A DNA stretch of 64,000 nucleotides from Promethearchaeota archaeon (GTDB taxonomy: Archaea > Asgardarchaeota > Lokiarchaeia > Sigyniarchaeales > SOKP01): positions 1,164,943 through 1,228,942 of the forward strand of contig JAHPZA010000006.1 in NCBI GenBank assembly GCA_019058445.1, given 5' to 3'. Positions 4,369 to 18,928 of this stretch are shown here, piece after piece. Under the pieces are notes generated by a model. The model was not told the origin of the DNA, made no database searches, and was given only the letters and a program-made list of their open reading frames with translations. Positions within the stretch are counted from its first letter, which is position 1. Each line of letters begins with the position of its first letter. Position numbers and translations under genes: made by a program.

Positions 4369-6510
4369 TTAATTTTTGCCTTTTAACAATTCATCTGCGG
4401 TTAGAAATTGAGAGGACCGATACCTTTTTCGCGTTTTTGTTATATTCTTATCAATATGGTTTTGATTTAATATTGTGGGATGGTTAGTTGTTAAATTATT
4501 GGAAAAATCTATGAGTTCATATAAAGAATTATCTAATTCGCTTACAAAACGAGAAGGTTTAAGAAAGTTCATTCTTTTATAGGACTGTGTTGATTTTGGA
4601 GATATTAAGAACAACTCATCTCTTGCTCTGGTGACTGCTACATAAAAAATTCTTCTTTCTTCTTCAATATCTTGTTCCTCTTTTGTAATATATGTTGTTG
4701 GAAAGAGTTTTTCTGATAATGAAATGATAAACACAATATCCCATTCTAGTCCTTTGGCCTTGTGAATAGTAGATAATACTATCCGATTATCATCATCTTC
4801 CTTATGAGTTGTTTCTTTTACACTGTTTGATAATTCCGAGATATTTAAGTTTAAATGGTCTATAAAGCCACTAATTGATTTAAATTCGAGGGATAATTCA
4901 AAAACAGCATCAATATCTGCTAATCTCTCTTTAAAATTTTCAAAATTTTTTTGGATATATGGCTTTATTGACAATCTTATTTTCTGAATCACTAAAGAGG
5001 GGGTAGATTCAGAATTAAAACTTTTAAAAGATTTCAAGTAATTAATTAGATTAGTAAAACCCCGTTTTGAGAGTTTTATTTTATTTAACTCAGATTCGTA
5101 TAAATCAGATTTATTTAATTCTCTGATCGGATCTCTTAATTTTATAATTGTTTTAAAAATTTCCCGAGAAGAAACCTTTCCTATATTTGGAATAATTTTA
5201 AAGATGCGATTCCAAGACAACTCATCATAGGGATTAAAAATGATTCTTAAGTGAGCAAGTAAATCCTTGATATGGGCTTGCTCGAAGAAAGAGACTCCTG
5301 AACGGACTACAAATGGTATAGCATTGGCCTGAAGTTCTTTCTGTAAAATAATCGAATGGAAATTTGATCTATATAACACAGCTATTTTTGATAAATCAAT
5401 CCCCTCGTTCATATAATTTAAAATTTTTTGAACGATAAAACGTGCTTGTTCCCTTTCGTCGAAAATTACAACATATTTTGGTTTAACACTACTTTCCCTC
5501 ACCGTTTTCATAGTTTTTTGAAATTGAATTCTATTGTTTTTTATTGAATTATTAGCTAAATCTAATATTTCAGGGGTAGAACGATAATTGTATGTAATTT
5601 TGTGTTTAGTTATGTTTTTTAATTTTTCTCCAAAATTGAGGAGGTTTTTAAAATCAGCACCGCGAAAACTATATATGCTTTGTGCATCATCGCCAACAAC
5701 CATAATATTTTGATTAATTTGAGCAATTTTGAGAATAATTTCAGCTTGCATGAAATTGGTATCTTGATATTCATCAACTAAAATATGTTTGATTTTTTCT
5801 GCGATATTTTGAGCGATTTCTTTTTCATCAAGTAATCTATTCCATAAAACAAGTAAATCATTGAAATCAACCAAGTTATTCCTGATTTTACGTTCATTAT
5901 AGTTATTAAAAATCACTTCAAAATGAGTTATTAAGCTTTCTTTTAATAAATATGGATATTTCCATTTTAAAACTTGTTTAATAGTTCTATTTGTATTAAT
6001 CTTATATGATAATATTTTAAAACAACGCTTAGCGTTAGGGAAGTTCATTAATTTATAATTAGGGAGCGATTCTTCAATAGACAATTTCATCAAGGAGTAG
6101 GAATCAGTCTGATCAATAATGGTATATCTAGGCTTTAATCCAGCTAAATGAGTATATTTTCTAATAAACCTATTAGCTAAAGAATGAAAAGTTCCCCCCC
6201 ATATACCGTTAGGTTCTTCACCTAATAACGTTTTAACTCTTTCGAGCATTTCTTTTGCTGCTTTATTAGTGAAGGTAACGAGCATTATTTCTGAGGGTTG
6301 TACTCCCCGTTCAATTAATTTAGCTACGCTATAGGTAATAGTTCTTGTTTTTCCGGAACCAGCTCCTGCTATTACTATCATTGAGCCGTTAATATTGTTA
6401 ACAATTTTAAGTTGTTCCGGATTTAAATTGTTTTTAAATGAAACTTTATGGATAGTATGAGAAATGCTTTTATGGGATTTACTTTTATTCTGATTAGTGA
6501 ATTTCTCCAT
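4369..6510 (-). CDS. uvrD: UvrD/PcrA-family SF1 DNA helicase
   Basis: AGAGSGKT, TFTNKAA, VDEYQD, GDDAQSIYSFRGA, NYRS, STIHKAKGLEW, EERRIFYVAVTRA; ATG at 6510 lies just after the mcm stop. Confidence 0.93.
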   Translation of the reverse strand: MEKFTNQNKSKSHKSISHTIHKVSFKNNLNPEQLKIVNNINGSMIVIAGAGSGKTRTITYSVAKLIERGVQPSEIMLVTFTNKAAKEMLERVKTLLGEEPNGIWGGTFHSLANRFIRKYTHLAGLKPRYTIIDQTDSYSLMKLSIEESLPNYKLMNFPNAKRCFKILSYKINTNRTIKQVLKWKYPYLLKESLITHFEVIFNNYNERKIRNNLVDFNDLLVLWNRLLDEKEIAQNIAEKIKHILVDEYQDTNFMQAEIILKIAQINQNIMVVGDDAQSIYSFRGADFKNLLNFGEKLKNITKHKITYNYRSTPEILDLANNSIKNNRIQFQKTMKTVRESSVKPKYVVIFDEREQARFIVQKILNYMNEGIDLSKIAVLYRSNFHSIILQKELQANAIPFVVRSGVSFFEQAHIKDLLAHLRIIFNPYDELSWNRIFKIIPNIGKVSSREIFKTIIKLRDPIRELNKSDLYESELNKIKLSKRGFTNLINYLKSFKSFNSESTPSLVIQKIRLSIKPYIQKNFENFKERLADIDAVFELSLEFKSISGFIDHLNLNISELSNSVKETTHKEDDDNRIVLSTIHKAKGLEWDIVFIISLSEKLFPTTYITKEEQDIEEERRIFYVAVTRARDELFLISPKSTQSYKRMNFLKPSRFVSELDNSLYELIDFSNNLTTNHPTILNQNHIDKNITKTRKRYRSSQFLTADELLKGKN

Positions 6511-6514
6511 CTTA

Positions 6515-8653
6515 TTATTGATCTTGTTTACTGGTAAATTTAATTTCATTAGGCTTAGGTTCGTATAAGGTTCCTTCTTTTATAGCTTCCTCAATGGCAT
6601 TTTTAACGAAACCTTTCTCAATATTTTCATCTAATTCTATGACTTGTATTACGTTTTTTTTCTCAAGAGCTTTCCATTGATTTTCTTCGAAAAGTTCTTT
6701 TAAGCGATCATACACCCGTGTGAGTTTATTGGTTTTACTCCTTGGTTGACCCATAAGAATCATATCTACATCGAATTTCCCTGTCTCCTTGTCATAACCA
6801 GTGTCTTTCAAGAATCTTTTAAAAAGTTTGATTATTTCATCCACATCTTCTTTTAAAACTTTATCTCTTAGTGCCATTTTCGCATATGCTTCACTCATGC
6901 GAACTAATGCTTCGAGATTTCTGGCTAATATTGAAACAATTGCGTCCTCTTTTTTATATTGCCCTCTTAAATCTAAGTAAAATTGCTTGATTCGTTCTTT
7001 AGCTTCTTCACTTAATTTTGGAAAATAATTTTTTCTGGCATATTTAATATACTTAGTTAAAAAATCTGTACTAATTGGGGCCACCATTTTGTTGGATTTT
7101 TCGGAATCCTCTAAAAATTCTTCAGGACCCATCATAGCGCTCTGTAAGATGAATTCGGCCATTTGAGCATCATTCGCGGGATCTGGACGATCCATTACTT
7201 TAAAAATTAAATCAAACCGACTCAAAAGAGATGGCGGCATACGCGTATTTTCTGTAAACGATTTGTATTCATTGAATCTTCCAGTATATGGATTTGCAGC
7301 AGCGATAATTGCTGTTTGAGCTTTTAATGTGGCGACAATTCCTGCTTTTGCAATACTCACGGTTTGCTGCGCCATCGCTTCATGTAGTGCAGATCTATCT
7401 GCAACATCCATTTTGTCAAACTCATCTATGGAAGCAATTCCTCCATTGGCTAATACTATTGCTCCCGCTTCAAGATTCATTTGTCCTGTTTCAGTATCTT
7501 TAATAACTGCAGCAGTCAATCCCACTCCACTTGAACCCTTACCTGAAGTATATAACCCTCTTGGAGAGATTTCTACAGCAGATTTCAATATTTCCGACTT
7601 TCCCGTTCCAGGATCACCTACAAATAGTACATGAATATCTCCTCGTTTAAAGCTTCCGCCTGGTCGTGGTCTTCTTGTTCCTCCGAACATACTTAATGCA
7701 CATGCCATTTTAAGGTCATCTCTTCCAAAAATTGTAGGTGAAATTGATCTGGCAATTTTTTTTTGAATCATTGGTTCCTTTGATAGTTTTTTGATTTTTT
7801 TGATATCCTCCTTCGAAATATCAATATATTCATCACTTTTATCTTCTGGATCTATAAAATTTACGTCTACATACGTTTTAAACAAAGTTGAATTCAAGCC
7901 TTTTATTGATTGAGCCAGAACTGATTTAAATACACCCATAACATTAATTCTATCTCCAGGCTTTATTGTATCAACTAAATCATAAGTTAATATAGCTTGA
8001 ACAGATCGAGGAATTCTTCCTGGTGGTAGATCCTCAGGTACTTCTTGTATTGTAATGCTTTGCCAGTCGATAAATTGTGAATTTTTAGAGATGAGCCTAA
8101 AATCAGAGTGCGCCTTCGCTTTGCATCGTTTATTAGTGCAAAATTTGGGCCATCTCACTTTTGAAGTTAATTGAGGTATATTAATAATCGCTCCGCAAAG
8201 AATACATTCGAAGACAGCGGTAGTTAATTTTGGTCTAACAGTAGAAATTCTTACTAAAATCCCCTTGAACCACACTAACCTATCTATATTTTTCGATCGT
8301 AATCCTCTAATAGGAATTCCTAATGGGCTTTTTTCATCTTTCGTAGCAATCCTTACAAAATATTTTTGATTTGTTAATGTTCCTGATTGTAGTTTTATAA
8401 CGTTCTTATAGGCATCTATGGCATCTTCTAATAAAGATTCAGGATCATTTTTGAGCATTTCAGCAATTTGGGGATCAAATGAGAGGAGGTCTTCATATAA
8501 AATAATTAGAGCATTTCCTCCCTCGTCAATAATTTTATTAATTTGATCTTGATATTTGAACTCTCCTGGTTTTTCTTGAAATAAGCGATAAAAATCCTCA
8601 AACCTCTGAACTTTATGAATTGGTTGAGTAGGACTAGGTATGGGTTGAGTCAT
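6515..8653 (-). CDS. mcm: MCM replicative helicase
   Basis: Zn finger, GDPGTGKS, IDEFDKM, SRFD arginine finger, C-terminal winged helix. Confidence 0.97.
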   Translation of the reverse strand: MTQPIPSPTQPIHKVQRFEDFYRLFQEKPGEFKYQDQINKIIDEGGNALIILYEDLLSFDPQIAEMLKNDPESLLEDAIDAYKNVIKLQSGTLTNQKYFVRIATKDEKSPLGIPIRGLRSKNIDRLVWFKGILVRISTVRPKLTTAVFECILCGAIINIPQLTSKVRWPKFCTNKRCKAKAHSDFRLISKNSQFIDWQSITIQEVPEDLPPGRIPRSVQAILTYDLVDTIKPGDRINVMGVFKSVLAQSIKGLNSTLFKTYVDVNFIDPEDKSDEYIDISKEDIKKIKKLSKEPMIQKKIARSISPTIFGRDDLKMACALSMFGGTRRPRPGGSFKRGDIHVLFVGDPGTGKSEILKSAVEISPRGLYTSGKGSSGVGLTAAVIKDTETGQMNLEAGAIVLANGGIASIDEFDKMDVADRSALHEAMAQQTVSIAKAGIVATLKAQTAIIAAANPYTGRFNEYKSFTENTRMPPSLLSRFDLIFKVMDRPDPANDAQMAEFILQSAMMGPEEFLEDSEKSNKMVAPISTDFLTKYIKYARKNYFPKLSEEAKERIKQFYLDLRGQYKKEDAIVSILARNLEALVRMSEAYAKMALRDKVLKEDVDEIIKLFKRFLKDTGYDKETGKFDVDMILMGQPRSKTNKLTRVYDRLKELFEENQWKALEKKNVIQVIELDENIEKGFVKNAIEEAIKEGTLYEPKPNEIKFTSKQDQ

Positions 8654-8816
8654 ATTTAATTACGTGAATTTTTTTATTATATCCAAAATATTCTTAAAAA
8701 TTTTTTAAATCTGCCTATTAACGGATAGGTTATTAAACAGTAAATATATTGTAATTAAAAAAGAGAAGAGAGCAATAATTTAGTCGTTTATTAATATTCG
8801 TTGCTAAGTAAAAAAC

Positions 8817-11800
8817 TTAACTCTCTCGTATTTTATGCAGATTTGCACAAATTATAGGATCTTGGCTCATTTCACATCTTATTTTCAATAAAGAAATGAC
8901 TCTTTTTTTGATTTTTTCCTCCTCATATCTTACGGTTCGTCCCAAAATTATTGCAATTGAACGTTGCAATTCTATAGAACCCTCATCGCTTAGATTTTTA
9001 AGGAGTTTAGAAAGAATTTGTGATATTCCTATGTTATTGATAATTTCCACCATTGAATTTATCATACTAGTTCTTACTTCTCCTGATTCATCTTCCAAAA
9101 GAGAGATGATGCTTTCAAAAATCGTATCAATATTTTGAAAACCATAAATTTTAAGCAATCTTGCTGAAGCTTCTCTGACTTTGGGATCGGTATTATTAAG
9201 ATTCTTAGAAACTTTTTCAAATGGAATAAATGATGCTTTTATACCTTTAATATTAGATAAGATATTCATCACTGATCTGCGAACCCATGTCTTATTATCA
9301 TCTAAAAGCGGGATGAGATTATTTATTATAAGCTCTTTATGTTCAATATGTTCAATTATTTCGCCCAGACTTGAAACTGCTGCTTCTCTAACTATCCAAT
9401 CCTTATCATTTAATCCTTTCTCAATTAGAATGTTTAAAGCCTCGTCTGGGGATTTATAGCCAATTAGCCCCAGTATTTTGACTGCAGACTCTCTAATGAA
9501 TGAATCTTGATCTGAGAGAATATTAATTATTAATTCTAATGGCATAATTTCAGGAGATTCTTTTGCTATTTCTAATAACGATTTAGAAATGGTAACCTTT
9601 ACTGTTGCTTCTTGAGTATTTAATGATTGTAAAATAATCGATATTTCGGGTTTTATAGCCTCAGGATTTTTCATAGCGATTTTTGAGAGAATTTTGGAGG
9701 CTTCTTTTCTAATTTGCTGATTTTTATCTTTTTGAAGAATTTTCAGTATGGGTTTAATAGTAATATTGTTATAATATTCATCTGCCAGACCCTCTAATGA
9801 GGAAATCGCGTTTAATCTAATCTCATCATTATCATCATCTAAAAATTTGACTAATTTCGGGATGATATAATTAGGATCCTTTTTAGCAATACTAATAATC
9901 GTCTTGGCAATGATTCCTTTTGATATAAACTTAGAGACATCAGGAATTTTAATGAGATTTTGAAAAATCAAATCCGGATTACTTGTATACTTATTACTGA
10001 GGATTTTTGAGATATTCTCTTTTAACTCTTGATTTTCAAATTTAATGAATATTAATAAGGTGGTAAGGATTTTTTCTGGATTTTGTTCCCAAAGTCTACC
10101 AAGTAGAGTTAAAACGCTAGTTAATATTTCATTATTATTAGGATCAATTTTATTTATAATCAAGTTTATATCCAAAGAATCAGGTTCTTCATTGAAATAT
10201 TTTTCCAGTGCTAAAACTGAGGAATTTCTAACTTCCTTGTTTACATCGATTAATCCATTTAGGAATGGCAGGAGCGGGATGTCAAATCGCTTAAAGTTAC
10301 CTATTTCAGCAAATATCTCAAAAACGGAAGCTCTAACTGAGCTTGTTGGATCTTTGATTAGAGATTTCAGTTTACTAATCATTTCAGAATCCAAATCCTT
10401 AGGTTCTATATTCTTTAGATTTTGAATTGCTGCAGCTCGAATTTCTTTATTGGAATGGTTTATTTTATCATGAATTAGCTCAAAAGGGATTTTTTCTGAA
10501 GAAATAGCTAAAATTTTTAAAACCTCAACCTGTACTTGGCTGTCAGGGTCGTTTATCAATTCATTTAGATTTAATTTTGAGGTTAATTTTATATTGTTTT
10601 GAATTAGCCTTGATAAAATTTTTAGTCCAACTAACTTTAATCTCCATTCTGAATCTTTAACTAAATCAAAAATAAGTTGTTCGGGTACTTTTTGAATTAA
10701 ATTAATGTTTGCAGTGATTAAAGACTGTGCAAATGGAAGACTCTTGTCGTAATTAGGAGAATTTAAAGATTCAATTATCCAAGGTAATAATATATCTGGA
10801 GCATCTCTTTCTAACTGGAGTAGTATTTTAAGACATATATATTTTGAATAGGGATTTGGATCACATATTCCATCAATTAACGGATTTTTATATTTCATAT
10901 CGTTAAGGTTTAGATCTGCCTTTAGAGGTAATCTTTCATACATTAATATTAAAGTCTCTTCAGCTAGATTTCTTACTTTAAGGTTTTCACTTTTAATAAA
11001 ATTAAAAAGGGGTATAGGATCAAATGTCTGTCCACATTCAGCTATAAGGGAGTATTTAAGATTGTTAGTAAATTCATTTTTTTTTGATAGAAAATAATAT
11101 GTTGTAATAGAGATCAGGATTATTTCTTCTATTGCTGCTGTCCAAGCAAATAATAAATAGTTCGGAACTATAGTGGTTGTATAATTTGATGCCGTAAAAA
11201 CGTTTGATACTTTTTCAACATTGACAATTAGAAAATTAACAAACACATTTATCCCGACTGCAGCCATTAGATAAGCTGCAAAATAGATATCAATTCCCCG
11301 ATATTTGATGATTCTATTCCAGAACCGCGAAAAGAAGCCAATTATTCCCATCGCTAGAGTCACAAAAACGAAACCTGCATATGAATAAGGGGAGATTAGT
11401 AAAGCACCAGAAAAGAAATATCCTATCGTCTGTATCATGGAAATCCATGCCCATACAAACACAAATAACATTAAACCCAGAAGAATTCTCGGTGCAGGAT
11501 CATTAAGAAATTCTTTCAATGTTCTTTTGCTATCTTCAAAACCAAGAAATAAGGATCTTCTCATATCAGGTATATGGTAATACACATTAGTTATCCCAGC
11601 GATATATCCTTTAGAGCCATAAAAAGTTAAAATTAGCAAGGGATAAATGAGCATCCAAGAAATCCAAATCATTATAAATGGCAACCCTATCAAAGAGAGA
11701 AAGAATGGTGGAAGAAAGAATACTCCTAAAAAAAATCCTACGGCATAAATTACTCGAATCAATTTATTAGTTGACTTATTTATGATTTTATCTCCAATAA

Positions 11801-12218
11801 ATTTATGAAAGGGGGTTAATCCTTCATCGGATTCATCGCTTAAGGCTATAAACAAAAAATCTATTAAGGGATACAAAGAAATATAGACTAAACATACCCC
11901 AAACGGTATTAGTAGAAAATAGGGATGAATCTCTGGGGGTTCAGCTTCACTAGTTTTCCAGAATTCTGGTGTTTTTATGGCAAAAATAAACGCCATAGCT
12001 ACAACAATCATTACTGCAAAACTAAAAATTGTCCCAAATACAATACATTGAAGTCTATCTCTAAATTTAAATTCCCCCTTTAAAACTAATGCTACTTGAA
12101 AATAAATCAATAGGGTACCTATAACTAAAGCAATAAGAAAGATAATAAGTAATGCTATTGAAGCTTCGTTTCCGAATAAAGCGTCTAATACATTATCTTG
12201 CAATATCAAGATTATCAC
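8817..12218 (-). CDS. Polytopic membrane protein (~9 TM) with long C-terminal HEAT-repeat solenoid
   Basis: About 9 hydrophobic segments in the first ~375 aa; repeated LxDxxxxVR-type HEAT units over ~750 aa. Confidence 0.85.
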   Translation of the reverse strand: MIILILQDNVLDALFGNEASIALLIIFLIALVIGTLLIYFQVALVLKGEFKFRDRLQCIVFGTIFSFAVMIVVAMAFIFAIKTPEFWKTSEAEPPEIHPYFLLIPFGVCLVYISLYPLIDFLFIALSDESDEGLTPFHKFIGDKIINKSTNKLIRVIYAVGFFLGVFFLPPFFLSLIGLPFIMIWISWMLIYPLLILTFYGSKGYIAGITNVYYHIPDMRRSLFLGFEDSKRTLKEFLNDPAPRILLGLMLFVFVWAWISMIQTIGYFFSGALLISPYSYAGFVFVTLAMGIIGFFSRFWNRIIKYRGIDIYFAAYLMAAVGINVFVNFLIVNVEKVSNVFTASNYTTTIVPNYLLFAWTAAIEEIILISITTYYFLSKKNEFTNNLKYSLIAECGQTFDPIPLFNFIKSENLKVRNLAEETLILMYERLPLKADLNLNDMKYKNPLIDGICDPNPYSKYICLKILLQLERDAPDILLPWIIESLNSPNYDKSLPFAQSLITANINLIQKVPEQLIFDLVKDSEWRLKLVGLKILSRLIQNNIKLTSKLNLNELINDPDSQVQVEVLKILAISSEKIPFELIHDKINHSNKEIRAAAIQNLKNIEPKDLDSEMISKLKSLIKDPTSSVRASVFEIFAEIGNFKRFDIPLLPFLNGLIDVNKEVRNSSVLALEKYFNEEPDSLDINLIINKIDPNNNEILTSVLTLLGRLWEQNPEKILTTLLIFIKFENQELKENISKILSNKYTSNPDLIFQNLIKIPDVSKFISKGIIAKTIISIAKKDPNYIIPKLVKFLDDDNDEIRLNAISSLEGLADEYYNNITIKPILKILQKDKNQQIRKEASKILSKIAMKNPEAIKPEISIILQSLNTQEATVKVTISKSLLEIAKESPEIMPLELIINILSDQDSFIRESAVKILGLIGYKSPDEALNILIEKGLNDKDWIVREAAVSSLGEIIEHIEHKELIINNLIPLLDDNKTWVRRSVMNILSNIKGIKASFIPFEKVSKNLNNTDPKVREASARLLKIYGFQNIDTIFESIISLLEDESGEVRTSMINSMVEIINNIGISQILSKLLKNLSDEGSIELQRSIAIILGRTVRYEEEKIKKRVISLLKIRCEMSQDPIICANLHKIRES

Positions 12219-12337
12219 AGAATAATAAGGATATGAATAATTTAATAATGATTTAATAGAAATTTTATTTCTCTTATTAAACTTAGTAATGTATATTAAA
12301 TTAAATTTTTTTAATCAATTCTCTCAAAAAGATTAAT

Positions 12338-12910
12338 ATGAATAAAATAGAAGATGACTTTCTTGATTCTTTAAAAAGAATTAATTTCATTTTTAGAAAT
12401 GAGGAAGTTTATACTGAATGTATTAAGAATCATAATGGCTTTTCGATGTTAGGAGATAAATTAGGTCCATTTGAAAAAGGTAAAAAATACAAATTAAAAC
12501 TCTTTTTAGCAGTTCCATTTATTAAAAATAACATATTAAAGGTTGCTCCTGAGAGTAAATGTGATAATGTGGATTTACAACGTTTTGCTATTGAGGAACG
12601 AGACGATCAAAAAATCATACAACGAGAAAATGATTATTTTTTAAATAAAATTAAGGAATTTAATTTATTTATGGAAAAAGAAGTTATGGAAAATAACATA
12701 CCACAAAAGTTTTTAGATGATTACAAATCCTACTTTACGAGTGTTTTAGATTCCCGAATATTAAAAATTATGAGGATCGCAAAGAGTGATACTTCTGTAG
12801 AAGTAGAGAAGAGGCTAGCAATATCAGAGCATCTTTTATATCACAATATTCATAAGATCATTAGTATCTGGAGAGAATTTTTTCTCAGTTTAGCGAGTCT
12901 TAAAGGATAA
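12338..12910 (+). CDS. gins23: GINS subunit, Gins23 type (B-domain then A-domain)
   Basis: N-terminal LGPFEKGKKYKLKLFLA B-domain pattern; helical A-domain with RILKI...SEHLLY...WR; near mcm. Confidence 0.75.
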   Translation: MNKIEDDFLDSLKRINFIFRNEEVYTECIKNHNGFSMLGDKLGPFEKGKKYKLKLFLAVPFIKNNILKVAPESKCDNVDLQRFAIEERDDQKIIQRENDYFLNKIKEFNLFMEKEVMENNIPQKFLDDYKSYFTSVLDSRILKIMRIAKSDTSVEVEKRLAISEHLLYHNIHKIISIWREFFLSLASLKG

Positions 12911-13748: not shown

Positions 13749-14267
13749 TTACTCCTTAAGTGTGAGATATTCTTTTCTTGCTTTTGCATATTCTTCGCCG
13801 CTAATTTTTCCCGCCAAAAATTGATTTTCTTTATCTCGCATTATACTTCTTTTTTTGGCAAGTTCCTTTCTTCTTTCAGCTTTTTGAAAATTATTTGAAA
13901 TAGATTGAGCAATATCTGTAATATTTTTATTTTTATTCTTAAGTAAATTTTCCAAATATGGTTTTATTGGTCTTGCCATTTCTATGTTCTTTTTAGAAAG
14001 TTCCTCAATACGTTTAAGGGCTAGTATGATTTCATCTTGATCATCACCCTCTAATACAGAGATTAATCGAGGTATAGCCACATCCTTCAGAATTTCATCA
14101 AGATATGCCGAAATTTCCTTTTCTACTTTATTGTCTCCATAGGTTCCAAGCTGTTTATCTCTAATATATTCAATAAACACAAGAGGTAATTCTACAGGCC
14201 AATCTTGCATTTTCTCCTTGCCAATTAGCTGGACGATTCCACCATCTTTTTTTTGAAATATTCTCAT
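13749..14267 (-). CDS. Hypothetical protein with HEAT-like helices and a C-terminal SHOCT-like motif
   Basis: SD GAGGTG before ATG 14267; IPRLISVL...LALKRI HEAT-like unit; GKISGEEYAKARKEYL. Confidence 0.6.
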   Translation of the reverse strand: MRIFQKKDGGIVQLIGKEKMQDWPVELPLVFIEYIRDKQLGTYGDNKVEKEISAYLDEILKDVAIPRLISVLEGDDQDEIILALKRIEELSKKNIEMARPIKPYLENLLKNKNKNITDIAQSISNNFQKAERRKELAKKRSIMRDKENQFLAGKISGEEYAKARKEYLTLKE

Positions 14268-14279
14268 CTTATACACCTC

Positions 14280-15481: not shown

Positions 15482-18400
15482 TTATTTTAATTTCCAATGT
15501 TTTTTGCCCATTTTCACATCAACTACAACTTTTCCCTTACGTTCTAATTCTTTTAATTTGATCTGCAAGAACCTTGCATCCATCATATCTTTAATTCTCA
15601 ATTTGAAAATGAGATGTTTAATAGTTTGCCAATCATCTGTCAATGCTCCTATCAAACTATCAGTGGTAATCACCGGTAAATGGGTTTGTATTGGCTTAGG
15701 TGGTGTAAAAGAAGCTTTAGGTTTAGGTTTAGGAGGTGCTTTTTCTTTTATAGCTTGCATTCTTGCTTTTGCAGCTTTTAATTTTTTAGGCTCTAGTGCA
15801 ATAGGTTGTACTAATTCAACTTTTTCAGGTTTCTCTTCTTTAACAATTGGTTTTTCAACTCCTTTAAGATGATCTTGAATCTTCTTAATTATTTCAGTTT
15901 TTTTAATTTTCGATGGAATTTTTATATTATTTTCATCACAATATGCTCTTAATTTTTTTACAGTCCATTGAGTGAGAGTTTCAGTGTCGAGCATTTCCTT
16001 CTTGACGGGAATCTCTTTAGGTTTCTGAGTGATTTTTGTGGGTGTCTCTTTTTCTATGATACGTTCTTTCTCTTCTACTTTTTCCTCTTTTATTATTGGT
16101 CTCTCCTTAGGAGGTTCAAGAACTTGAACTTCAGGTTTTACTGGTAACGGTTCTTGGGGAATGGTAGGTATTTTTTTAACGCCTATCGCTTCCCTCATCA
16201 AAGTCTGGAGCTCTTTCTCATCAAGTTGACTTTTATAGATACTCTCTCCTTGATAAGCTATATTATACACACTTTTAACAAACTTTGGAATATATTTTTC
16301 AATTAAACTTGCTCTTTTTTCACTTTTACGTTGAGTTGCTTTTCGATTGATATATACTCTTAATCTACGTCCTATTGCTTCTAAACAAAATTTAATTTCC
16401 TTAATTAAACTTTCGTCATCGGCTAAAGCATTTTTAGACTGAGATTTAAACATTAAGTGAACAAATGGACCTGAAACGTTAACTAATAATTTTATTGGTC
16501 CTTTAGGTAAATTATTATCATAGGTATCTAATTTATAATTTTTCCAATTAACTGATTGAACTGCTTTGGTTATAGCACAATCAGCACTATCCCTTAATTT
16601 GGGAGTTCTATTTACAAATCGAGATAAAACATCCCTAGAACGTTTTGGGACTTCGATCCGATTTGAATATGCTAACACTGCTTCAACTACATAAGCCAAT
16701 CCTTTTCCACTTGTAGGATCTCTTGTTTCAGCTGAAATAAAATCATCATCTTTGGTATAATTTTCTACAAAGTATTCGAATACCATATTATAAGTCTCTT
16801 TTGTTTCAGCTTCTTCTTTTTCAATAAAATTAATTATTGATTGTGTTAATTGGTCTGATTCTATACTGGTGTCTTTAATATCAACGTTTTTCAAAATTTG
16901 AGAATTGACATCGATAACTTCTTCTACATCAACAGAAATCTCGTTTAAAATTTCTTCACTAGCATTTGAATCTTCTTGGATTATTACTTCTTTTTTTTCA
17001 CTAAGCAAAATATCAAATATTTTCTTGATATCATCAGTTGGTGTATCGTAGTCATCTAAATTTTCTGAAACTCGCAAACCTAAATCTTTTATTAAAGTAT
17101 TTTCTAATATGGTATCTCCAACTGGTATGGCAGTATCAGTAGGTGGTGCCATATACTTTATTGATTTGAAAGCAAGAAACAATGAATTAAATTGATCGTT
17201 AGTTAATTCTGCAGGCTTTACTTTGGAGAGTTGAACTTGATTAATTAAATCTTCGAATTCAGTTCTATTTTTCAGTTTTTTTAATTCATTCAACCCATCC
17301 TGATTATTTTTCAATAAAATTTCGATGTTTTGTTTTAATTTATCCTTATCTTTCCTATTTTTATCGATTTCACTTAATAATTTCCTTATTTCATTCTGAA
17401 TTGATTTTTCGTCTTTTTTTGTCTCAGCTTTATCAATCTGGTCGTTATGTTTTTTTATTTTTTTGTTTATTTTCTCTCTATTTTTTATTAATTGATTATA
17501 TTTTGAAATTAAATCCCAATATTGATTTTTTAAATCATCAGAGACTATTTCATAAATTATCAATTTATCTCTCGGCTTTTGAGATCTTCCATAAACTCTC
17601 TTTTCAAACTGAAGGAAATAAAATGTATCACTGTTTTTTCCTGGGATAGTAGCAAATCCCGTACTAAGAATAAGAAGTTTAAGTTTATCTTGTAAATCTC
17701 TTTCAGCTAAATCAATAATTTCTTTTGCTGTTTTAGAGCTTACTCTTACAAAGTTTTCTTTTAAAAATGAGCTTATTGTAAGATTATTGGTTTTAATTAA
17801 TAAATCTTGAAGATCACCAATATTAGTGGAAGATGGATGGGGTAATGCATATTTAGGTTCTAAAGGAAATGAAGAAACTTTTCTTGGATAAATATGTTCC
17901 TCGTTATAAGGATCTATAAAAATGATAGTGATATGGGGGTTCATTAAAGCCGTTTCCTTTATATATGTATCGACATATCCCCGAATATATTTCACATTCA
18001 AGTAATGTAGTTTTATATAAGTCCCGTGAAGAAACGGACAATCAACTTCAGTCGGAGTAATGAAATATTTTTTTTCATTTTTAGAAGTAGTGGAAAATTC
18101 TGAAACGGTGGCATATACATTTTCCACTGATTTTGAGACGGCAACAATTGGTTTTCCCGTAGTGTTTTGTGAATCACTAAAAGCACTAGGGGCCCCGAAA
18201 CCTTGAGAACCTCTGGTTTGTTTTAATTGCATGCTTTTACTGGAAGCTAGATATTTTCCAAATTTTCGTAAGTCTACTTTTGACATCCCAGTTCCATTAT
18301 CAAAAATTTCAAAAGTATAACTCATCACGTTCTTTTGACTTAATTCTGAAGTCAAAAATGAAGCTGCTTCGGTTTCGCCTATTCGCATAATTACAATAGG

Positions 18401-18928
18401 TTCGTCATCAATAATGGATTCTACAGGTTTAATAATTTCTTCCATATCAACAATAATTTTCTTAACTTCCTCTTCTACCTCAATTTCAGACTTATCAGTT
18501 ATCTCTCCAGACTTAGCTGGTTCTTCTTCTTTCTCTACCTCAAATTCTGTCACTTCAGTTTCGCTAGGTTCTGTTTTTTCAGTTTCACTAGGTTCTAAAC
18601 CAAATTCTTTCATTAAAGTCTGCTTTGCCTCATCATCTAAAGGTTTAAATGTGGTCTTGTCTTCGGATTCTTTTTGAAGAATAGAGAGATTTTCTAAGGA
18701 TAATTCTTGGTCTAATGTGAATCTAAGTTTTGAATTTGGGTTTTGAATCTCTTCCCATTGAAAGGTTTCAATAGCGTCAAGTGCATTGTCTAAAAATTCT
18801 GCCACGTACTGTTGGTGTTTCCAATAGCCAAATTCAAAACCAACTAATTGAGTACGCTTGCGCATAAATTCCGCTATAGTCCCTTGCTTAATCGTCGATT
18901 TTTCATCTCGAGAGGTAATGGTAAACAC
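15482..18928 (-). CDS. top6B: DNA topoisomerase VI subunit B, expanded (1148 aa)
   Basis: EFLDNALDA, DNGTGM, QTRGSQGFG, HGT GHKL motifs; PHP; RFVNRTP; FKSQSK transducer. Confidence 0.93.
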   Translation of the reverse strand: MFTITSRDEKSTIKQGTIAEFMRKRTQLVGFEFGYWKHQQYVAEFLDNALDAIETFQWEEIQNPNSKLRFTLDQELSLENLSILQKESEDKTTFKPLDDEAKQTLMKEFGLEPSETEKTEPSETEVTEFEVEKEEEPAKSGEITDKSEIEVEEEVKKIIVDMEEIIKPVESIIDDEPIVIMRIGETEAASFLTSELSQKNVMSYTFEIFDNGTGMSKVDLRKFGKYLASSKSMQLKQTRGSQGFGAPSAFSDSQNTTGKPIVAVSKSVENVYATVSEFSTTSKNEKKYFITPTEVDCPFLHGTYIKLHYLNVKYIRGYVDTYIKETALMNPHITIIFIDPYNEEHIYPRKVSSFPLEPKYALPHPSSTNIGDLQDLLIKTNNLTISSFLKENFVRVSSKTAKEIIDLAERDLQDKLKLLILSTGFATIPGKNSDTFYFLQFEKRVYGRSQKPRDKLIIYEIVSDDLKNQYWDLISKYNQLIKNREKINKKIKKHNDQIDKAETKKDEKSIQNEIRKLLSEIDKNRKDKDKLKQNIEILLKNNQDGLNELKKLKNRTEFEDLINQVQLSKVKPAELTNDQFNSLFLAFKSIKYMAPPTDTAIPVGDTILENTLIKDLGLRVSENLDDYDTPTDDIKKIFDILLSEKKEVIIQEDSNASEEILNEISVDVEEVIDVNSQILKNVDIKDTSIESDQLTQSIINFIEKEEAETKETYNMVFEYFVENYTKDDDFISAETRDPTSGKGLAYVVEAVLAYSNRIEVPKRSRDVLSRFVNRTPKLRDSADCAITKAVQSVNWKNYKLDTYDNNLPKGPIKLLVNVSGPFVHLMFKSQSKNALADDESLIKEIKFCLEAIGRRLRVYINRKATQRKSEKRASLIEKYIPKFVKSVYNIAYQGESIYKSQLDEKELQTLMREAIGVKKIPTIPQEPLPVKPEVQVLEPPKERPIIKEEKVEEKERIIEKETPTKITQKPKEIPVKKEMLDTETLTQWTVKKLRAYCDENNIKIPSKIKKTEIIKKIQDHLKGVEKPIVKEEKPEKVELVQPIALEPKKLKAAKARMQAIKEKAPPKPKPKASFTPPKPIQTHLPVITTDSLIGALTDDWQTIKHLIFKLRIKDMMDARFLQIKLKELERKGKVVVDVKMGKKHWKLK

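Follow-up and report, generated by a model that had tools for sequence, protein, structure and literature searches.

A nine-helix membrane protein with a long HEAT solenoid, paired with gins23 in one Asgard order: a possible docking scaffold for replication or chromosome proteins

The Membrane-HEAT Gene and gins23

The 64,000-nucleotide stretch of archaeal DNA analyzed here (the window; Promethearchaeota archaeon, order Sigyniarchaeales, assembly GCA_019058445.1, contig JAHPZA010000006.1, positions 1,164,943 to 1,228,942) carries at 8817..12218, on the minus strand, a single open reading frame (ORF) of 1133 amino acids with a GTG start and its stop codon at 8817-8819. Its product joins a membrane domain of nine helices to about 750 residues of HEAT repeats. 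This membrane-HEAT gene is conserved throughout one order of Asgard archaea, where it is nearly always paired head-to-head with gins23, the gene for a GINS subunit. The proposal put forward here, a tentative one that falls short of probable, is that the protein sits in the membrane as a scaffold on which replication or chromosome proteins dock, and that its gene is co-expressed with gins23; the case for it is drawn from genomic context.

In such a scaffold the nine-helix module, with a fold of its own, would form an integral membrane platform that carries the HEAT solenoid into the cytoplasm. The solenoid would be a docking surface holding proteins of DNA replication or chromosome organization at the cell membrane, and docking of cytoplasmic proteins is what the general behavior of HEAT solenoids would lead one to expect. 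A short divergent promoter region, shared with gins23, would drive the two genes together. Possible clients are GINS or the Cdc45-MCM-GINS (CMG) complex, or else an adaptor that binds DNA, for which the helix-hairpin-helix protein encoded just before some paralogues of the gene is a candidate.

In the window, gins23 (Psf2/Psf3-type subunit, 190 aa) occupies 12338..12910 on the plus strand, divergent from the membrane-HEAT gene across a 119-bp spacer (12219..12337) that is presumed to be the shared promoter region. On the other side, the membrane-HEAT gene is followed by a co-oriented mcm (6515..8653, minus strand, 712 aa; Pfam MCM, MCM_OB, MCM_lid and MCM_N), whose start is separated from the membrane-HEAT stop by 163 bp of AT-rich DNA with T-runs and TATA-like words (8654..8816). 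An earlier reading of the letters and ORFs (the sequence-only reading) had placed the gene upstream of and co-oriented with mcm and divergent from gins23, an arrangement that these coordinates bear out.

As a single sequence the window's gins23 reaches 38.9 bits with NCBIfam Gins23, below the cut-off of 120. A profile of 38 orthologues matches solved GINS chains at E values from 1.2e-7 to 5.9e-4: the archaeal-type chain 9moj_C at 1.2e-7, the archaeal chain 3anw_B at 5.9e-4, Psf2 chains at 6.7e-7 to 4.1e-4, and the human chain 2q9q_A at 1.3e-5. Eleven of the 38 orthologues reach Pfam Sld5 and two reach PSF2_N. By its orthologue profile, the ORF at 12338-12910 is identified as gins23. It is the only strong copy in the window's genome (E 2.8e-81; the next match is 2.3e-4 over 45 residues), and mcm is the only strong MCM match there. 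The docking proposal gains support because the two neighbors are the sole strong copies in the genome.

Architecture and Topology

The membrane domain (residues 18-377; 11088..12167, minus strand) is delimited by hydropathy, structural models, loop charges and conservation. Nine hydrophobic segments are detected inside it, and two AlphaFold2 models show nine long helices at residues 18-46, 52-82, 100-126, 152-176, 181-214, 242-270, 277-302, 308-332 and 354-377, with a few short amphipathic helices besides. The model of the membrane domain on its own (56-row alignment) has a predicted local distance difference test score (pLDDT) of 86 and a predicted template modeling score (pTM) of 0.84; for the full-length model (49-row alignment) the values are 85 and 0.52. 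Lysine and arginine number 12 in the four predicted cytoplasmic loops vs 2 in the four outer loops, a bias that argues for an N-out/C-in topology with the HEAT part in the cytoplasm.

The predicted cytoplasmic solenoid (residues 382-1132; 8823..11075, minus strand) contains 45 helices in the full-length model, or about 20 repeats. With 122.2 bits for Pfam HEAT (PF02985, cut-off 23.5) and 125.2 bits for HEAT_2 (PF13646, cut-off 27.7), the 1133-residue protein counts as a HEAT-repeat protein. The sequence-only reading had described about nine transmembrane helices fused to about 750 residues of HEAT repeats and had pointed to topology and structure prediction as one check; hydropathy, Pfam, the AlphaFold2 models and the loop charges agree with that description.

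Other HEAT-based Pfam families also score above their cut-offs, among them Adaptin_N, Cnd1, HEAT_EZ, TOG, GCN1 and SCD. Adaptin_N (PF01602) reaches 67.2 bits (cut-off 37), its best stretch being profile positions 67-180 of 524; Cnd1 (PF12717) reaches 60.6 bits (cut-off 26.4) and SCD 32.1 bits (cut-off 27.5). The Adaptin_N, Cnd1 and SCD scores are best read as generic HEAT similarity, for Adaptin_N because many other HEAT families score over the same region. Structural comparison of the solenoid by Foldseek returned CAND1, SF3B1 and karyopherin-beta2 (E 3e-12 to 1e-9, TM-score 0.2-0.4); no specific solenoid relative stands out in that search, and adaptins are not among its top 49 rows. Within the window's own family a block near the C-terminus (about residues 1072-1124) holds 20 invariant columns. 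The HEAT part is thus strongly conserved, with an invariant C-terminal block, as expected of a specific binding surface, and this too speaks for docking.

No clear counterpart of the membrane domain was found. Residues 1-400 gave no Pfam match in a scan of the whole protein at E up to 0.01, and the membrane domains of four divergent members matched no Pfam family at E up to 10. Against PDB sequences, phmmer returned a single match at E 1.5, and so no relative by sequence; a Foldseek search of the PDB had no match at or below E 0.001, the best being E 0.2 with a TM-score below 0.2. The best VIA score over 48,161 chains was Z 7.7 with 126 of 400 residues aligned, which is within the noise range that the tool states for helical bundles. 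Hrd1, TatC and SERINC3 appeared in that search at Z 5.4-7.5, short of what the tool considers meaningful for such bundles; these, TRAP and the other VIA families, all with Z below 8, were neither accepted nor excluded as fold matches. A sequence search of the ESM Atlas with residues 1-400 gave no usable match, and hhalign comparison of the domain halves at two cuts gave a probability below 1% for internal duplication. The membrane domain therefore has no Pfam family, no solved relative by sequence and no clear fold match in these searches. The sequence-only reading had named a match to a known transporter-HEAT fusion as one result that would speak against it; such a match was looked for and not found.

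Distribution of the Family

A word-indexed search detected 264 homologues, from Asgard (Promethearchaeota) metagenome-assembled genomes where a source is named. The 120 homologues listed are 1061-1147 residues long and 56-91% identical over 93-100% of the query. The gene is not a chance ORF, since 264 homologues exist and the 120 listed are alike in length and architecture. The annotation PF26715.1 is precomputed for many, not all, of the homologues listed.

The membrane domain alone, searched against 1.84 billion representatives, found only 61 proteins at E up to 0.001. Twenty-nine of these have at least 900 residues, and since all 29 are 938-1289 residues long, the two-part architecture is fixed; the 32 shorter proteins may be fragments. 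The 28 long representatives other than P0020, placed by tblastn, are each 32-100% identical to a known locus over most of their length. Thirteen go to families f2/f3 and seven to family f4 of the order (gins23-linked clade), and eight go to the paralogue clade described below.

A survey of 400 genomes of the phylum with a single-sequence query of the membrane domain found the family in 143, all in the window's own order (143/154 within the order, 0/246 outside it). By family of the order, the counts are 123/134 in f1, 1/1 in f2, 14/14 in f3 and 4/4 in f4; the window's own genome, counted apart from these, is positive as well. Completeness is 61-94% for the 11 f1 genomes that lack a match. Outside the order, three further families of the class gave 0/7 genomes and the rest of the phylum 0/239. 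The membrane-HEAT gene is a core gene of one Asgard order, and docking is a more plausible function because of it.

Gene Order in Close and Distant Relatives

Close relatives were found with two peptide patterns, and 80 loci were kept of 157. A divergent gins23 lies within 600 bp in 65 of the 66 loci with more than 800 bp of upstream sequence, and a co-oriented mcm lies downstream in all 75 with more than 1500 bp on that side. The spacer between the gene and mcm is 142-263 bp in 74 of those 75 relatives and 2807 bp in one. For the seven relatives with ORFs listed, the spacer to gins23 is 63-173 bp in six, and the ORF calls overlap in the seventh (L115). Where more than 7 kb of upstream sequence is available (52 loci), Top6B, Top6A, a gene for a 175-residue protein (orf175) and gins23 are all present in every case. 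Word counts over the two kinds of spacer found only AT-rich, TATA-like words in common, plus AATCTGGT and neighboring words; these latter occur in 26-28 of 69 spacers and may lie in coding sequence. One locus (L069, contig DATKTW010000133.1) is labeled 'Candidatus Nanopelagicaceae bacterium' and carries the full Asgard block Top6B-Top6A-orf175-phosphoribosyltransferase-gins23-gene-mcm-UvrD; the contig is probably mis-binned.

The distant loci number 15 (one in f2, ten in f3, four in f4), and their proteins are 21-35% identical to the query. There gins23 is head-to-head with the membrane-HEAT gene in 13 of 15: in all 11 loci of f2 and f3 and in two of four in f4. In the f3 loci with ORFs listed the spacer is about 60-130 bp. 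The other neighbors in f2 to f4 differ from those in f1 and include a NAT10-like acetyltransferase, a molybdopterin oxidoreductase, a HAD hydrolase, TIM and a glycan phosphorylase. One f4 locus, L125, has the order membrane-HEAT gene (minus), gins23 (plus), mcm (minus, with an intein), and another, L124, combines a head-to-head gins23 with a partial MCM-like stretch. A profile built without the two GINS genes of f4 matches both at E about 2e-8. The near-constant gins23 and mcm neighbors of the close loci count in favor of docking, which is further supported because the pairing with gins23 survives in families where the other neighbors have been reshuffled, and because L125 keeps the three genes together in a different order.

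A Paralogue Clade beside DUF4332 and SMC Genes

Five f2/f3 genomes that were checked hold 2-4 family copies each. In a quick maximum-likelihood tree (23 rows, midpoint root only, the careful search unfinished), a clade of five copies is split from all gins23-linked copies by a branch with a Shimodaira-Hasegawa-like approximate likelihood ratio (SH-aLRT) of 100. The five copies (L127:7665-12079, L128:7724-12089, L129:7755-12065, L130:7743-12059 and L131:3509-7935) stem from four genomes of three genera.

In all five loci a co-oriented gene for a protein of 260-263 residues lies directly upstream, with a gap of 0-3 bp. This protein matches Pfam DUF4332 in 5/5 (60.9-98.9 bits, cut-off 23.2) and, more weakly, at least one of TfoX_C, HHH_5 and Cdd1, all of which we take to be families of helix-hairpin-helix DNA binders. 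The spacing suggests translational coupling of the paralogue gene to the DUF4332 gene, and the two are a candidate membrane/DNA-adaptor pair. An SMC-family gene follows 3-6 kb downstream in four of the five. Since both gins23-linked and DUF4332/SMC-linked contexts are seen, two clades of the family stand beside DNA-related genes, and the docking proposal is strengthened because the paralogue clade adjoins the helix-hairpin-helix gene and SMC independently.

The window's genome has no such paralogue. Its own DUF4332 protein (414 aa; L132:1480-2724, G000:C9), encoded away from the membrane-HEAT gene, is joined to a transglutaminase-like region. In the window itself SMC, ScpA and ScpB are about 30 kb from the membrane-HEAT gene. 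The ORF upstream of the window's SMC (orf397) and that upstream of the SMC in L130 (orf421) are not similar by BLASTP.

Alternative Explanations

Several observations weigh against docking of replication or chromosome proteins. In f1 the whole block Top6B-Top6A-orf175-phosphoribosyltransferase-gins23-gene-mcm is frozen in 52/52 loci; with the block frozen, the phosphoribosyltransferase included, f1 synteny alone says little about function. Among the close loci one exception is seen, L034, where no gins23 lies upstream of the gene and its place is taken by an open frame of at least 1113 codons that is cut by the contig end and is unrelated to the membrane-HEAT gene (L034:1-3339, plus strand). 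In f4, two loci of one genus (L123 and L126) have neither gins23 nor mcm by the gene, and in all 11 f2/f3 loci mcm is outside the fetched stretch. A gene unlinked to mcm/gins in relatives was the other result that the sequence-only reading had named as speaking against it. Linkage to gins23 holds in close and distant relatives, and linkage to mcm holds in the close relatives and fails in f2 and f3; neither this check nor the search for a transporter match refuted the idea. Because mcm linkage is lost in those 11 loci, the constant partner across the order is gins23, not mcm.

The history of the locus bears on the same question. Five genomes without the membrane-HEAT family served as outgroups. 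In three of them (G002, G128 and G123) a co-oriented mcm comes directly after gins23; in G126 the two are 3 kb apart and divergent with no related gene between them, and in G129 they are 7 kb apart. Since the outgroups mostly have gins23 directly followed by mcm, the simplest history suggested is that a new gene entered an ancestral gins23-mcm pair and that gins23 was inverted. Such an insertion may explain part of the linkage, the gene simply having stayed put. For the earlier idea of a membrane tether or scaffold for replication or chromosome machinery, then, the gene neighborhood is in agreement, but the linkage is partly explicable by insertion. The paralogue context has its own weak points: DNA binding by the DUF4332 protein is suggested by family resemblance, and the protein has no match among PDB sequences.

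Some of these facts would also fit a membrane scaffold unrelated to DNA, one serving, for example, the envelope, protrusions or the organization of membrane proteins, with the position beside gins23 a frozen accident kept by shared promoter DNA. It would account for the apparent insertion into the ancestral pair, for a frozen f1 block that includes genes with no role in replication, for the three loci in which gins23 does not adjoin the gene (L123, L126 and L034), and for the paralogue neighborhood, which includes glycoside hydrolases and a proteasome subunit (a proteasome beta subunit divergent upstream and a GH77 glucanotransferase after the gene, in 4/5 loci). An accident of this kind sits poorly with a pairing that survives where every other neighbor has been reshuffled and in the different order of L125, and with an independent clade beside a helix-hairpin-helix gene and near SMC. 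A DNA-unrelated scaffold is judged somewhat unlikely.

The membrane domain raises a different possibility. An alignment of 49 sequences from all clades has a mean column conservation of 0.53 in the membrane domain vs 0.48 in the HEAT part, so that the former is at least as conserved as the latter. Position 120 in helix 3 is acidic (D/E) in 49/49, N324 and N328 in helix 8 are kept in 48/49 and 47/49, and E/Q364 in helix 9 in 49/49. The helix-breaking P117 and P193 are kept in 49/49, G34 and F65 in all or nearly all, and a basic loop (R/K298, W300, R/K302, K305) is conserved as well. Conserved as they are inside the membrane, the polar residues suggest a module that does more than anchor, and that could sense or conduct something. 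Polar residues kept within helices are easier to reconcile with an active transporter or channel than with a passive anchor, and this too counts against docking. The protein might then move a solute or ion, with the HEAT arm regulating it or coupling it to partners, as an architectural counterpart of the bacterial NTT-HEAT proteins; its site beside gins23 could reflect supply or signaling for DNA synthesis, or nothing. A membrane transporter with C-terminal HEAT repeats is a widespread, monophyletic architecture in bacteria, according to PMC5381601. This is a serious rival, if an unlikely one: the residues D/E120, N324, N328, E/Q364, P117 and P193 are kept across all clades, or nearly so, and the domain is at least as conserved as its arm, but it bears no clear likeness to any transporter family or fold in the Pfam, Foldseek and VIA searches, its halves show no internal repeat, and some 750 residues is very long for a mere regulator arm.

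An adaptin-like role in trafficking, in which a membrane-bound relative of the coat adaptor solenoids would collect cargo or shape membranes, is improbable: a catalogue label and category discussed below imply such a role, but the Adaptin_N match covers a short part of the profile on a region where Cnd1, GCN1, TOG and SCD also score, CAND1, SF3B1 and karyopherins, rather than adaptins, lead the structural matches, and no trafficking or adaptor-subunit gene is among the conserved neighbors.

Within the docking proposal, the HEAT domain (residues 380-1133; 49-row alignment) was co-folded with Gins23 (38-row alignment); two runs made without controls scored 0.00, gave no answer and count neither way. 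A more specific version can be outlined, in which the order tethers its replisome or chromosome to the membrane by means of this dedicated family. The HEAT arm would bind CMG through GINS in the gins23-linked clade, and a helix-hairpin-helix adaptor near SMC in the paralogue clade. So detailed a scheme is quite unlikely to be right in full.

Relation to Known Systems

The family is catalogued but uncharacterized. The label of asCOG cog.002852 / arCOG02967, as worded in the supplement, fits the architecture described here, a likeness of description only. The two cultured Lokiarchaeia compared in the catalogue both have orthogroups that bear this label. The family is filed there under trafficking (category U), not replication, a further point against docking, and the catalogue paper lists an 'adaptin N heat repeats domain' with the signature proteins linked to trafficking. 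Compared with the results given here, the catalogue entry carries no statement of function, fold, topology or gene context. Neither cog.002852 nor arCOG02967 was found in the text of the papers searched, and in literature searches on a replication link neither the protein nor its gene neighborhood was found described. In a 2025 survey of Asgard replisomes (PMC12680538), a term search of the main text gave 0 occurrences of 'HEAT' or 'transmembrane'.

The nearest described architecture is that of the bacterial fusions NTT-HEAT and NTT-HEAT-cNBD, which PMC5381601 describes as widely conserved and functionally uncharacterized. They share with the Asgard protein a polytopic membrane domain followed by C-terminal HEAT repeats. 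Unlike them, the Asgard protein has a membrane domain that is not an NTT/TLC carrier (the Pfam searches with four divergent members, up to E 10, matched nothing), a much longer HEAT arm of about 20 repeats, and replication genes, not cNBD genes, in its vicinity. With CAND1, SF3B1 and karyopherin-beta2 it has in common an alpha-solenoid of about 20 HEAT repeats; it differs from these, and from Adaptin_N and Cnd1 proteins, in the possession of a membrane domain, and at TM-scores of only 0.2-0.4 none of the three solenoids is favored as a specific relative.

In eukaryotes the LEM/HeH proteins (Heh1/Heh2, MAN1) tether chromatin at the inner nuclear membrane. Any likeness lies in a possible way of working, that of a membrane protein holding DNA or DNA-bound proteins, which is hypothetical for the Asgard protein, and no relation of sequence or fold is claimed. 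The paralogues, for their part, are paired with a helix-hairpin-helix protein.

If GINS/CMG or DNA-binding partners are docked at the membrane by this family, archaeal replication or chromosome organization would have its first named membrane anchor, and the catalogue label would change for a family now counted among trafficking-type eukaryotic signature proteins. Such an anchor would bear on the linkage of DNA to membranes before a nucleus existed. A true tether would amount to prokaryotic membrane-chromatin attachment in close relatives of eukaryotes, with a logic like that of the inner-nuclear-membrane tethers, and would offer a molecular explanation for peripheral replication in archaea. 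The order contains cultured Asgard archaea, so that the idea is open to localization and pull-down tests. Even if the link to replication is false, what is left is a nine-helix module conserved across an order, with polar intramembrane residues and no known fold relative.

Other Features of the Window

Beyond gins23 the window carries a phosphoribosyltransferase gene, orf175 (13749-14276, minus strand), Top6A and a long Top6B. The product of orf175, a protein of 175 residues, has no Pfam or NCBIfam family; the gene keeps its place between the phosphoribosyltransferase and Top6A genes in 52/52 related loci whose flank is long enough, and 3 bp separate its end from the start of the Top6A ORF. 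The Top6B ORF (15482-18928, minus strand, 1148 aa) matches NCBIfam models and is about twice their length (539 and 488 positions). Since the model matches fall in two or three separated stretches, it carries large extra segments.

Downstream of mcm, an ORF for a UvrD-type helicase (4369-6549, minus strand) overlaps the mcm end by 35 bp (6515-6549). Only some related loci (e.g., L002, L003 and L063-L074) have a UvrD gene after mcm, at varying distance. The window's mcm (712 aa) is intein-free. Inteins occur in the mcm of some relatives and outgroups, where the interrupted frames reach 1105 aa (L125:7501-10818, minus strand), 1680 aa (L134:3719-8761, minus strand) and 1230 aa (G123:C29:7209-10829); the intein of the first of these matches Intein_splicing and LAGLIDADG.

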